64,000 bases of DNA, taken from assembly GCA_964432405.1 (NCBI GenBank), contig CAYSNH010000001.1, positions 122,932-186,931 of the forward strand, read 5' to 3'. The position numbers and the translations under genes were made by a program. A model generated the notes under the pieces. That model saw only the letters and a list, made by a program, of their open reading frames with translations, was not told the DNA's origin and did no database searches. Origin of the DNA: an uncultured Candidatus Saccharibacteria bacterium. GTDB lineage: Bacteria > Patescibacteriota > Minisyncoccia > UBA6257 > UBA11618. Position 1 is the first letter of the stretch, and every line of letters begins with the position of its first letter. Below, piece after piece: positions 17,012-19,173 of this stretch.

Positions 17012-18301
17012 TTAAAGATCAGCCCAATTTTTTCCTATCGACACATCAACCTTGAGACGCACAGGAAAATCATAAACCGTTTCCATAATTTGAGTGATTT
17101 TTTTAACTACACTATTAACTTTATCACTCTTAATCTCAAACAACAATTCATCATGAATTGATAAAAGAAGCCTTACGTCATCATTTTTATATTGCTGATA
17201 AACTTTAATCATAGCTAACTTAATAATATCTGCCGCCAAGCTCTGAATGGGCATATTAATCGCCGCTCGCTCAGCCTCAGAGGCTAAAAATCTATTAACA
17301 GAATTGATGGCTGGTAGCCAACGCTTTCTACCATTCAGATTTTCAACATAACCGATCTTCAACGCCTTCTTTTTAATCTTTTCTTGCCACGCTTTTATCT
17401 TCTTAAAATCAGCTAAATATTCTTTAATGAAATGATCGGCCTCTTTTCTGCTCAAGCCACTACTACGAGCAAAAGCAACCGCTCCCATTCCATAAACAAT
17501 TCCAAAGTTAAGTGTCTTAGCCATCTTCCTCATATCTACTGTTACTTTATCAAGCTCCACATTAAAAACCTGGCTGGCTGTAAGGCGATGAATGTCTTGA
17601 TCTTTTTTAAAGGCACTGATCATTTTTGGATCATTACTTAAACCAGCTAAAATTCTTAATTCAATCTGTGAATAATCTAAAGAAACCAACTTGTATCCTG
17701 GGCTAGCAATAAAAACCCTCTTAACCACTAAAGGAATGTTCTGAAGGTTGGGATTTTGAGAGCTTAATCTTCCTGTTGCGGTACTAGTCTGAAGAAAAGT
17801 TGTATGAACACGATCACCTAATTTTATTAATGGCTCTAAATAAGTAGATTTTATTTTAAAAGACTCTCTATATTGAATAATTAATTTAATAATCGTGTGC
17901 TCTTCTTTTAGATCTTGTAACTTTTCTGCTCTAGTTGAATGCAAGCCACTTTTAGTAGCTCTCCCCCTTGGTTTAATCTCTAATTTTTCAAATAAAATTT
18001 TAGAAAGTTGCTGTGGGGAATTTATATTAAATTCTTCACCCGCCTCCTTATAAATATTTTTTTCTAATGTTTGTAATTCTTTATTGTAATCAGTTAAAAG
18101 TTTCTTGACGGTTTTTTTATTAATCTTAATTCCTAATCTCTCCATTGATCTTAAGACCTCAACCAAGGGTAGCTCAATCTCATTAAATATCTTTTCCAAA
18201 CCCTCTTCTTTCAACCTACCTAGTAAATCTCCCTCGTCACTCATTGGGTTATCAGGGTTAAGAAGCCAATTAGCTATTTTATTTTTTATTTCTTGATTCA
18301 T
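17012..18301 (-). CDS. polA: DNA polymerase I, polymerase domain only
   Basis: 429 aa aligning with the Klenow polymerase domain from …IELPLVEVL… through motif A (DYSQIELRILA), motif B (RKMAKTLNFGIVYG) and motif C (HDELLFE). No 3'-5' exonuclease domain is present. Confidence 0.9.
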   Translation of the reverse strand: MNQEIKNKIANWLLNPDNPMSDEGDLLGRLKEEGLEKIFNEIELPLVEVLRSMERLGIKINKKTVKKLLTDYNKELQTLEKNIYKEAGEEFNINSPQQLSKILFEKLEIKPRGRATKSGLHSTRAEKLQDLKEEHTIIKLIIQYRESFKIKSTYLEPLIKLGDRVHTTFLQTSTATGRLSSQNPNLQNIPLVVKRVFIASPGYKLVSLDYSQIELRILAGLSNDPKMISAFKKDQDIHRLTASQVFNVELDKVTVDMRKMAKTLNFGIVYGMGAVAFARSSGLSRKEADHFIKEYLADFKKIKAWQEKIKKKALKIGYVENLNGRKRWLPAINSVNRFLASEAERAAINMPIQSLAADIIKLAMIKVYQQYKNDDVRLLLSIHDELLFEIKSDKVNSVVKKITQIMETVYDFPVRLKVDVSIGKNWADL

Positions 18302-19173
18302 TAATCAATAATATTTTCTAATCTATTAATTAAACTAGCAAAACCCATTTCTTGAAAAAAACTTTTAATCCCATCTCTATTCAATGGCCTTCTTTTTAAA
18401 TCGTCTAAAGAAAAATCAAATGGAATATCAACTCTAATCGTGGCTAAGTCCTTAGAAAATAAAGCTGCTTCTTTTTGATTCTCTAATTTATTACCAATCT
18501 TCTCTGGCAACTCCCAAAGATTTTCAAATAAATTATCAAGGTTACCGTACTTAGCTATTAATGGGCTAGCGGTTTTAGGACCCACCCCTTTAATACCTGG
18601 AATATTATCAGAAGTATCACCTAGCAACCCTTTGAGATCTGTTAATTGATTTGGATTTACGCCATAACGCTCAATTACCGCCTCCTCATCATAAAGCTTC
18701 GTCTCACTAATTCCCTTTTTTAAAAACTGAACCACTACCTTCTTACCATCTACTAATTGCAAGACGTCTAAATCTCCTGAAAGAATGATTACCACTAAAT
18801 CCTTCTCGCCTTTAAACTTCTTAGCCAAAGACCCTATAACATCATCAGCCTCAAAACCCTCCCGATCAATACTCTTAATTCCAAAAACCTCAAATAGATC
18901 ACGAGCCTTTTTTACCTGCGACTGTAAATCGCTAGGCATGGTCGGTCGATGAATCTTATATTGATCATATAACTTCCCTCTAAAAGTCTGGCCCGGTAAA
19001 TCAAACGTCGCTGCTATATAATCAGGCCTCTGTTCTCTAATTATCTTTAACAAAACACTAGATAATCCATAAACAGCCCCGCTCGCCTCTCCTTTTGAAT
19101 TAGCTAAAGGTGGTAAGGCGTGAAAAAATCGATAAATTAAAGCGTGATTATCTATTAGTAATAAGGTCTTCAT
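18301..19173 (-). CDS. 5'-3' exonuclease (FEN/Pol I N-terminal nuclease domain) encoded as a separate gene
   Basis: 290 aa with GDTSDNIPGIKGVGPKTA and acidic metal-binding residues. Its TAA stop overlaps the ATG of the polymerase-domain gene (TAATG). Confidence 0.9.
   Translation of the reverse strand: MKTLLLIDNHALIYRFFHALPPLANSKGEASGAVYGLSSVLLKIIREQRPDYIAATFDLPGQTFRGKLYDQYKIHRPTMPSDLQSQVKKARDLFEVFGIKSIDREGFEADDVIGSLAKKFKGEKDLVVIILSGDLDVLQLVDGKKVVVQFLKKGISETKLYDEEAVIERYGVNPNQLTDLKGLLGDTSDNIPGIKGVGPKTASPLIAKYGNLDNLFENLWELPEKIGNKLENQKEAALFSKDLATIRVDIPFDFSLDDLKRRPLNRDGIKSFFQEMGFASLINRLENIID

Follow-up and report, generated by a model that had tools for sequence, protein, structure and literature searches.

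A pair of adjacent genes in a 64-kb stretch of DNA from an uncultured Candidatus Saccharibacteria bacterium (hereafter the window) probably encodes the DNA polymerase I (Pol I) ortholog of a member of the Patescibacteria (Parcubacteria/Paceibacteria type), in a reduced, two-protein form without proofreading activity. ORF1 specifies a stand-alone 5'-3' nuclease and ORF2 a minimal family-A DNA polymerase. Both genes are located on the minus strand and are numbered by window positions (Table 1). Pol I is one of the best-studied enzymes, and its layout in three domains is treated as near universal in bacteria. The 3'-5' exonuclease domain, which normally separates the nuclease and polymerase domains, is reduced here to about 30 residues at the N-terminus of the polymerase.

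Nuclease and polymerase moieties of Pol I encoded by separate genes

ORF1 matched the two Pfam families that make up the 5'-3' nuclease of Pol I (PF02739, E = 4.6e-50, and PF01367, E = 2.1e-32). Comparison with the NCBIfam equivalog profile of Pol I (NF004397, 889 positions) led to an alignment over positions 1-283 with a score of 311.7 bits, which is below the cut-off of 720 bits. The cut-offs were also missed for the stand-alone exonuclease profile NF011547 (262.7 bits for a cut-off of 305, despite coverage of positions 1-290 out of 291) and for the Xni/ExoIX profile NF007017 (168.2 bits for a cut-off of 261). Since the N-terminal region of Pol I outscored the stand-alone exonuclease equivalogs, ORF1 is most aptly regarded as the 5'-nuclease domain of Pol I in detached form. 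All the carboxylates of the FEN-type active site were found to be conserved (D8, D58, E108, D110, D111, D134, D136, D186, and D189, corresponding in the same order to D13, D63, E113, D115, D116, D138, D140, D185, and D188 of E. coli Pol I), and R15, Y72, and K73 were likewise present. The C-terminus of the protein coincides with the normal domain boundary and is devoid of any additional interaction module. These features identify the product of ORF1 as a predicted complete flap/5'-3' nuclease of the Pol I type.

ORF2 matched a single Pfam family, PF00476 (E = 2.7e-134, residues 63-428). The alignment to NF004397 extended from positions 474 to 887 with a score of 538.5 bits, below the equivalog cut-off because the profile is covered only in part. 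Alignment to the reference enzymes placed the domain boundaries: residues 25-427 of ORF2 aligned with residues 415-828 of Taq Pol I, and residues 31-427 with residues 195-602 of the Klenow fragment. Motifs A (DYSQIELR), B (RxxxKxxxFxxxYG), and C (HDE) were present and the steric-gate Glu was intact. The key polymerase residues R178, N185, Q187, N188, D209, Y210, E214, R258, K262, F266, Y270, R345, N349, Q353, H383, D384, and E385 were all retained. The AlphaFold2 model of ORF2 had a mean predicted local distance difference test score (pLDDT) of 86.8 and a predicted template-modelling score (pTM) of 0.85. Foldseek comparison of this model with the Bst large fragment and KlenTaq gave query-normalised TM-scores of 0.84-0.92. 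ORF2 is thus predicted to encode a complete family-A polymerase core. The Pfam matches, whose E-values lie well outside what chance would produce, and the coverage of NF004397 by the two proteins (positions 1-283 and 474-887) bear out the separation of Pol I into a 5'-nuclease gene and a polymerase gene that had been proposed in the initial annotation. About 190 positions of the profile (approximately 284-473) were covered by neither protein.

The polymerase core differs from that of Taq by a deletion of six residues located immediately after the J-helix, between residues 190 and 192 of ORF2 (Table 1). The deletion removes the equivalent of V681 to G686 of the E. coli enzyme, including R682, and R690 is replaced by K. 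It was confined to the closest relatives of ORF2 (the window, P0003, P0011, P0013, P0018, P0023, P0044, and P0090 in alignment A1). The J-helix has been implicated in partitioning between the polymerase and exonuclease sites, as worded in the title of a study listed among the references of Czernecki et al. (2023; PMC10201439). The deletion may follow from the loss of the exonuclease site.

Two look-alike motifs, QQLSKILF in ORF2 and QEMGF at the C-terminus of ORF1, fall in segments common to all Pol I enzymes, and we make no claim on them.

ORF2 starts with a relic of the 3'-5' exonuclease domain

The initial annotation had ORF2 beginning exactly at the start of the Klenow polymerase domain. 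This was incorrect, as the first 30 residues or so derive from the exonuclease domain. The alignment was performed with MAFFT on a set comprising the window proteins, E. coli PolA (L085), canonical Firmicute Pol I, fused Pol I of the Candidate Phyla Radiation (CPR), and longer split forms. The N-terminal residues of ORF2 matched two remnants of the exonuclease domain, located roughly at residues 443-455 and 505-517 of E. coli Pol I. In the first remnant, KNKIANWLLNPDNP of ORF2 pairs with FDTMLESYILNSVAG of the E. coli enzyme (about residues 441-455), which forms the helix following ExoII, the relic helix IANWLLNPD being aligned with LESYILNS. In the second, EGDLLGRLKEE pairs with the last helix of the exonuclease domain (about residues 505-517). 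The columns of all three catalytic motifs, ExoI (DxE), ExoII (NxxxD), and ExoIII (YxxxD), were gaps in ORF2. The sequence therefore agrees with the proposal, made in the initial annotation, of a minimal Pol I predicted to be deficient in proofreading.

The relic is conserved. W12 was invariant in the 18 sequences of alignment A1, and L13 was at least 90% conserved. The AlphaFold2 model contains helices at residues 3-14 and 26-32 (pLDDT of 74-81). The higher Foldseek TM-scores were obtained for alignments with the Bst large fragment that comprised 483 columns, about 54 more than the length of ORF2. Such long alignments fit with superposition of the N-terminal helix on the equivalent helix of the exonuclease domain across a gap of about 50 residues. 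Conservation, pLDDT, and column counts together suggest that the relic helix may dock on the polymerase domain.

Longer split forms of 484-525 residues (P0057, P0072, P0095, P0104, P0106, and P0118) begin at the strand equivalent to ExoII ('MLIxFxLKE...FDLGVAFWLLNPDEEEYS..L...YL'), and residues 40-521 of P0118 align with residues 422-904 of M. smegmatis Pol I. Of the exonuclease domain, these proteins hold only the C-terminal half; no N-terminal half is encoded in the vicinity. In the window, the alignments indicate that the domain has been deleted save for about 30 residues predicted to form two short helices. The statement that it is missing altogether consequently stands as regards a folded domain and the three catalytic motifs, but not as regards the relic and its invariant tryptophan. 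Residual exonuclease-domain sequence, which the initial annotation regarded as incompatible with its reading, is technically present in the relic; it would restore neither a domain nor an activity.

Conservation of the two-gene arrangement

Homologs were surveyed among the 120 matches listed for each protein. All 120 homologs of ORF2 contained PF00476 only; 119 of them were 403-525 residues long, and the remaining one was a fragment of 265 residues. The named ORF2 homologs originated from the Patescibacteria group, Candidatus Harrisonbacteria, the Parcubacteria group, Candidatus Pacebacteria/Paceibacteria, and metagenome-assembled genomes (MAGs) of unclassified 'bacterium'. Homologs of ORF1 were stand-alone proteins of 249-308 residues in 120 cases out of 120. 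Proteins identical to the window pair were found in NCBI, JGI, ENA, and Logan assemblies, on contigs of up to 300,815 bp. In public records both proteins bear various names, namely 'hypothetical protein', 'DNA polymerase', and '5'-3' exonuclease H3TH domain-containing protein'.

Ten loci of the clade, including the window, were compared (the others were L001, L003, L004, and L086 to L091). The nuclease and polymerase genes were separate and neighbours in all ten, always in the order 5'-nuclease then polymerase. The order RuvB-TsaE-nuclease-polymerase-(histidine kinase)-Fpg recurred wholly or partly in the nine relatives, being interrupted or cut at contig ends in some of them. Comparison with the L086 orthologs (86% identical, synonymous divergence dS of about 1) gave ratios of nonsynonymous to synonymous substitution rates (dN/dS) of 0.066 for ORF1 and 0.082 for ORF2. 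Thus, both genes are under strong purifying selection, and the two-gene arrangement is a clade-wide trait. The presence of the same split in related genomes and the selection acting on both genes confirm that the pair is not a frameshifted polA.

The junction between the two genes varied (Table 1). In the window, the plus strand reads 'catta' at positions 18299-18303, that is TAATG on the minus strand; the stop codon of ORF1 (18303-18301) and the start codon of ORF2 (18301-18299) overlap by 1 nucleotide, exactly as annotated initially. The relatives displayed other overlaps, abutting genes, gaps, or an inserted gene. The inserted genes encode a LamG protein, a Trp-repressor-like protein, and a peptidase M23; they are mutually unrelated and correspond to three independent insertions. 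Since the genes remain paired in spite of variable junctions and insertions, the split appears to be old and stable and the products to be those of independent cistrons. In the window, 13 of the 47 same-strand neighbour pairs overlap and 15 more are at most 10 nucleotides apart. Motifs resembling a Shine-Dalgarno (SD) sequence precede only 7 of the 62 genes, and none was detected upstream of ORF2. With overlaps common and SD-like motifs rare, the TAATG junction represents ordinary packing for this genome. The initial description of two translationally coupled polypeptides therefore holds for the two polypeptides. Coupling is possible at the window junction, but it is neither conserved across the clade nor special to this gene pair.

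Erosion of the exonuclease domain in CPR Pol I

The length of the segment separating the 5'-nuclease homology from the polymerase domain was determined for 80 loci obtained by scanning a genome collection with universal PolA motifs. Most of these loci were non-CPR (41-50% identity), and three were cut at a contig end. Nearly all non-CPR Pol I enzymes of this set were fused, with about 140-270 residues between the two domains. The only apparent split in the non-CPR set was that of a Lachnospiraceae MAG (L031), in which the 5'-nuclease homology (1861-2721) and a Klenow-like frame of 611 residues (3404-5239) are in different frames; this could be a genuine split, or a frameshift or assembly error.

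Inter-domain lengths of fused CPR enzymes ranged from 44 to 184 residues. The segment was full-size in Uhrbacteria (184 residues) and Moraniibacteria (171 residues), the catalytic motifs being absent. Intermediate lengths of 151-153 (L005 and L006), 119 (L008), 85 (L007), and 64-73 residues (L021, L037, L064, L069, and L080) were observed. The shortest, 44 residues, was that of a Saccharibacteria MAG (L019) encoding a Pol I of 790 residues in total. The split forms of the window and L001 retain about 34 amino acid-equivalents. The fused enzymes of Saccharibacteria and Paceibacteria (L019, 3029-5401; L021, 2855-5278; L037, 2870-5284; L064; L069; and L080) comprise 790-825 residues and, nearly devoid of the exonuclease domain, retain an 'IAxWLL' relic helix.

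Neighbour-joining analysis of the polymerase domains grouped the window with other short sequences only, in a clade of 40 members whose nearest outgroups were fused forms with inter-domain segments of about 80-167 residues. The fused, nearly exonuclease-less enzymes of Saccharibacteria and Paceibacteria (L019, L021, L037, and P0328) were outside the split clade. These data suggest that the exonuclease domain was eroded in fused CPR Pol I, that the gene was then split at the 5'-nuclease boundary, and that the vestige was subsequently trimmed. Near-total loss of the domain probably occurred more than once in the CPR, the fused near-exonuclease-less forms being apparently independent of the split clade.

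Proposed function and alternative explanations

The assignment of the gene pair as a Pol I ortholog is based on the nesting of the split clade among fused CPR enzymes, on a gene order that reproduces the domain order, and on a syntenic housekeeping neighbourhood. According to this assignment, the ORF2 polymerase would act in excision repair and in the maturation of Okazaki fragments, filling gaps and displacing damaged strands or RNA primers. The separate ORF1 nuclease would cleave the resulting 5' flaps in trans, in the manner of FEN1 with Pol delta. Synthesis by ORF2 would proceed without intrinsic proofreading. The tryptophan-containing relic helix probably caps the polymerase surface that normally packs on the exonuclease domain, and would substitute for the stabilising role of that domain. 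We consider it reasonably likely that, throughout a large clade of Patescibacteria, Pol I function is carried out by a natural family-A enzyme of about 49 kDa, stable and active without an exonuclease domain, with a relic 'cap' of some 30 residues and a detached flap nuclease, near-total loss of the domain having taken place more than once in the CPR.

Three considerations weigh against this interpretation. Czernecki et al. (2023) stated, with reference to experiments on the Klenow polymerase domain in isolation, that PolAs depend structurally on the exonuclease domain to be stable; the exonuclease-less ORF2 protein might therefore need a partner. The window covers 64 kb of the genome, and a stand-alone exonuclease or proofreading protein may be encoded elsewhere. 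Finally, the tree was a quick neighbour-joining reconstruction without support values.

The need for a partner is at the centre of an explanation according to which the missing domain is supplied in trans, by a separate exonuclease as in split T7-like phage PolAs or by an unrelated protein binding to the relic helices as MP does for CCPol, with stability and perhaps proofreading being restored. The exonuclease-less PolAs found by Czernecki et al. (2023) indeed have either an adjacent exonuclease gene or three exonuclease helices that bind a partner, and the strong conservation of the relic helix, with its invariant W12, could reflect a binding surface. However, a search of the six-frame translation of the window with a hidden Markov model of the exonuclease domain, built from canonical and CPR sequences, recovered only the relic of ORF2 itself (E = 0.066), and no PF01612-like gene was present in the flanks of the ten related loci. 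The genes inserted between the nuclease and polymerase genes bear no relationship to one another, and the N-terminal half of the exonuclease domain was not found near the long forms. Given these searches of the window and of the flanks of related loci, supply in trans is rather unlikely. Reassembly of the two products into a non-covalent Pol I heterodimer, with TAATG coupling ensuring a 1:1 stoichiometry and the split being functionally neutral, is a little less likely again. The genes are always neighbours and overlap by 1-4 nucleotides in the window, L086, L089, and L091, but the pair is separated by other genes in L003, L087, and L088 (on the opposite strand in the latter) and by gaps of 88-100 nucleotides in L004 and L090, indicating that translational coupling is not conserved. 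This genome has stop/start overlaps as a general feature, and ORF1 has no additional module for interaction. Structures of Taq and E. coli Pol I show the 5'-nuclease domain on a flexible tether, with few fixed contacts to the remainder of the enzyme.

The possibility that ORF2 encodes a phage or mobile-element polymerase lying by chance beside a stand-alone 5'-nuclease, rather than a cellular Pol I, was suggested by the fact that exonuclease-less or split PolAs are so far known mainly from phages and from mobile elements of staphylococci (PMC10201439) and by the score of ORF2 under the Pol I equivalog cut-off. This score is explained by the partial coverage of the profile, and the next-best families, including phage DpoZ, scored far lower. 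In addition, the best structural and sequence matches were bacterial Pol I enzymes, the gene order mirrors the domains of fused Pol I, ORF2 nests among fused CPR enzymes in the neighbour-joining tree, and the housekeeping neighbourhood (RuvB, TsaE, Fpg, UvrB, and HolA-like) is syntenic across the clade. A phage or mobile-element origin is therefore very improbable. When a housekeeping gene is split in a metagenome assembly, the cause is often an artefact, and ORF1 and ORF2 join precisely where stop and start codons overlap, as might result from a deletion and a frameshift in an ordinary polA that has become a pseudogene or was misassembled in this assembly only. This explanation is effectively refuted by the identical proteins found on several contigs from independent sources, by the same junction in the 86%-identical relative, by the nine related loci (51-62% identity) that keep two separate genes, sometimes with other genes between them, by dN/dS values of 0.07-0.08, and by the catalytic residues, all of which are intact.

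Comparison with known polymerases

Canonical Pol I (E. coli PolA, Taq, and Bst; 'PolA1' in PMC12926913) has the same polymerase core and FEN-like nuclease as the window pair. It is a single polypeptide, whereas the window pair consists of two, with the domain order kept as gene order. Its exonuclease domain of about 190 residues is active (E. coli) or persists as a folded vestige (Taq and Bst), compared to about 30 residues in ORF2, and canonical enzymes do not show the six-residue deletion after the J-helix that eliminates the R682 equivalent.

Aquifex-type Klenow-like Pol I provides an example of a Pol I-like polymerase without a 5'-nuclease domain. A 2026 survey of bacterial polymerases (PMC12926913) described canonical PolA1, in which the DEDDy site is often inactivated, as well as solo 5'-3' exonucleases and a minor group termed 'PolA1-like'. 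The combination of 'PolA1-like' with solo Exo5-3 resembles the window pair in that a separate protein supplies the 5'-nuclease. It differs in that the nuclease of the window is an adjacent remnant of an ancestral fusion and that the polymerase also lacks the 3'-5' exonuclease domain. The survey was based on complete genomes, truncated sequences were dropped before phylogeny, and its main text contains no mention of Patescibacteria, CPR, Candidate Phyla, or Saccharibacteria.

Czernecki et al. (2023) distinguished only two kinds of PolA without an exonuclease domain, namely split enzymes of T7-like phages, whose exonuclease gene is adjacent, and CCPols, which keep three exonuclease helices and bind MP; the main text does not mention Patescibacteria or Candidate Phyla. 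The split T7-like phage PolAs (S-SBP1-like) share with ORF2 a gene restricted to the polymerase domain and resulting from a gene split. In the window, the split follows the 5'-nuclease domain, and the 3'-5' exonuclease domain is deleted rather than relocated; the adjacent genes encode the 5'-nuclease, TsaE, and a histidine kinase, with no adjacent 3'-5' exonuclease gene of the phage type. CCPols of staphylococcal mobile elements have, like ORF2, lost most of the exonuclease domain and kept a few helices, which are thought to preserve the stability of the fold (PMC10201439). There are three such helices in CCPol and two predicted in ORF2, and the likeness is one of description, in principle only. 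CCPol, a relative of CHEAP PolAs, acts on mobile elements as a primase-polymerase together with MP and Cch2. ORF2 is chromosomal and lies in a housekeeping context, and no exonuclease-domain partner was found for it in the window or in the flanks of related loci.

The isolated polymerase domain of the Klenow fragment was reportedly obtained by Freemont and colleagues in 1986. This engineered domain is without either exonuclease domain and is about the size of ORF2. It is a laboratory construct, whereas ORF2 is natural, under selection, and retains some 30 relic residues. Derbyshire, Astatke and Joyce (1993) is cited in PMC10201439 (its reference 130) as evidence that the exonuclease domain is needed for stability, and the domain, even inactive, is seen there as structurally indispensable.

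The window pair does not constitute a system of a new kind, and its sequences can be found in public databases; the architecture is not described in the two PolA surveys (PMC10201439 and PMC12926913). A literature search of incomplete coverage returned no description of a split or exonuclease-less Pol I in the CPR. A clade-wide, selected, two-gene Pol I with a remnant of about 30 residues provides a measure of the limit of natural reduction. Fused and split forms together make up a graded series, from full vestige through half domain down to one or two helices, which indicates the smallest structural element that must be retained. If the polymerase is indeed stable without the exonuclease domain, it would contradict the published generalisation that PolAs need this domain, and the ORF2 type would be the smallest cellular Pol I and a possible compact scaffold for polymerase engineering. 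The arrangement also bears on the maintenance of DNA without Pol I proofreading in the ultra-small genomes of the CPR, on the coordination of flap cleavage and synthesis by untethered enzymes, and on annotation, both proteins being under the NCBI Pol I equivalog cut-offs.

Genomic context

Table 1. Features of the split Pol I locus, its neighbourhood in the 64-kb window, and the junctions of related loci.
Feature	Position	Strand	Details
ORF1, gene of a stand-alone FEN-like 5'-3' nuclease that originates from the N-terminal domain of Pol I	18301..19173	-	290 aa
ORF2, minimal family-A DNA polymerase gene (thumb, palm, fingers, and short N-terminal relic)	17012..18301	-	429 aa
TAATG stop/start junction of the nuclease and polymerase genes	18299..18303	-	direct sequence reading
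Putative 3'-5' exonuclease-domain relic (ORF2 residues ~3-32)	18206..18295	-	helix 3-14 'QEIKNKIANWLL', then NPD, helix 26-32; MAFFT alignment
Six-residue deletion after the J-helix	17729..17734	-	HMMER alignment to Taq, gap 'niplv......vkrvf'
Tightly packed same-strand gene string around both Pol I genes	14197..20557	-	ORF list
RuvB	19580..20557	-	
TsaE	19170..19583	-	
Histidine kinase	15852..17009	-	
Fpg/MutM	14997..15848	-	
HolA-like	14197..14958	-	253 aa; TIGR01128, E = 1.3e-15, profile positions 1-174 of 316, below cut-off
UvrB	12138..13931	+	597 aa
YebC/PmpR family	22620..23366	+	
RuvC	23367..23843		
ORF of 619 aa	37990..39849	-	
tmRNA gene	309..652	-	tag peptide GNVNRTPALAYA
tRNA-Ile(GAT)	46809..46881	-	
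tRNA-Leu(TAG)	63746..63830	+	
Junction, 1-nt overlap			window, L086 (86% identical relative)
Junction, 4-nt overlap			L089, L091
Junction, directly abutting			L001
Junction, 88-nt gap			L090
Junction, 100-nt gap			L004
Gene inserted between the pair	L087 2973-3455		160 aa, weak Trp-repressor match
Gene inserted between the pair	L003 2561-3880		439 aa, LamG
Gene inserted between the pair	L088 2666-3406	-	246 aa, peptidase M23, opposite strand

Repair genes located near the Pol I pair encode Fpg, UvrB, UvrD, and RuvABC. The HolA-like ORF had no Pfam match and was present downstream of Fpg in most related loci; it looks like a C-terminally truncated delta subunit of the DNA Pol III clamp loader. 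UvrB matched its equivalog over positions 1-590 of 653, and the C-terminal 60 residues or so, which we take to be the UVR/UvrC-interaction domain, appear to be missing. The YebC/PmpR-family ORF matched its profile only from residue 79 onwards, over positions 1-136 of 245, and would be either a truncated YebC or the combination of a mis-called TTG start and a truncation. Since the HolA, UvrB, and YebC homologs are also without C-terminal parts, loss of the exonuclease domain may be part of a genome-wide trimming of domains. RuvC directly follows and abuts the YebC/PmpR-family ORF. A weak match of the exonuclease-domain search at positions 23367..23840 was attributed to RuvC and rejected. The ORF of 619 residues had no Pfam match at E <= 0.001.

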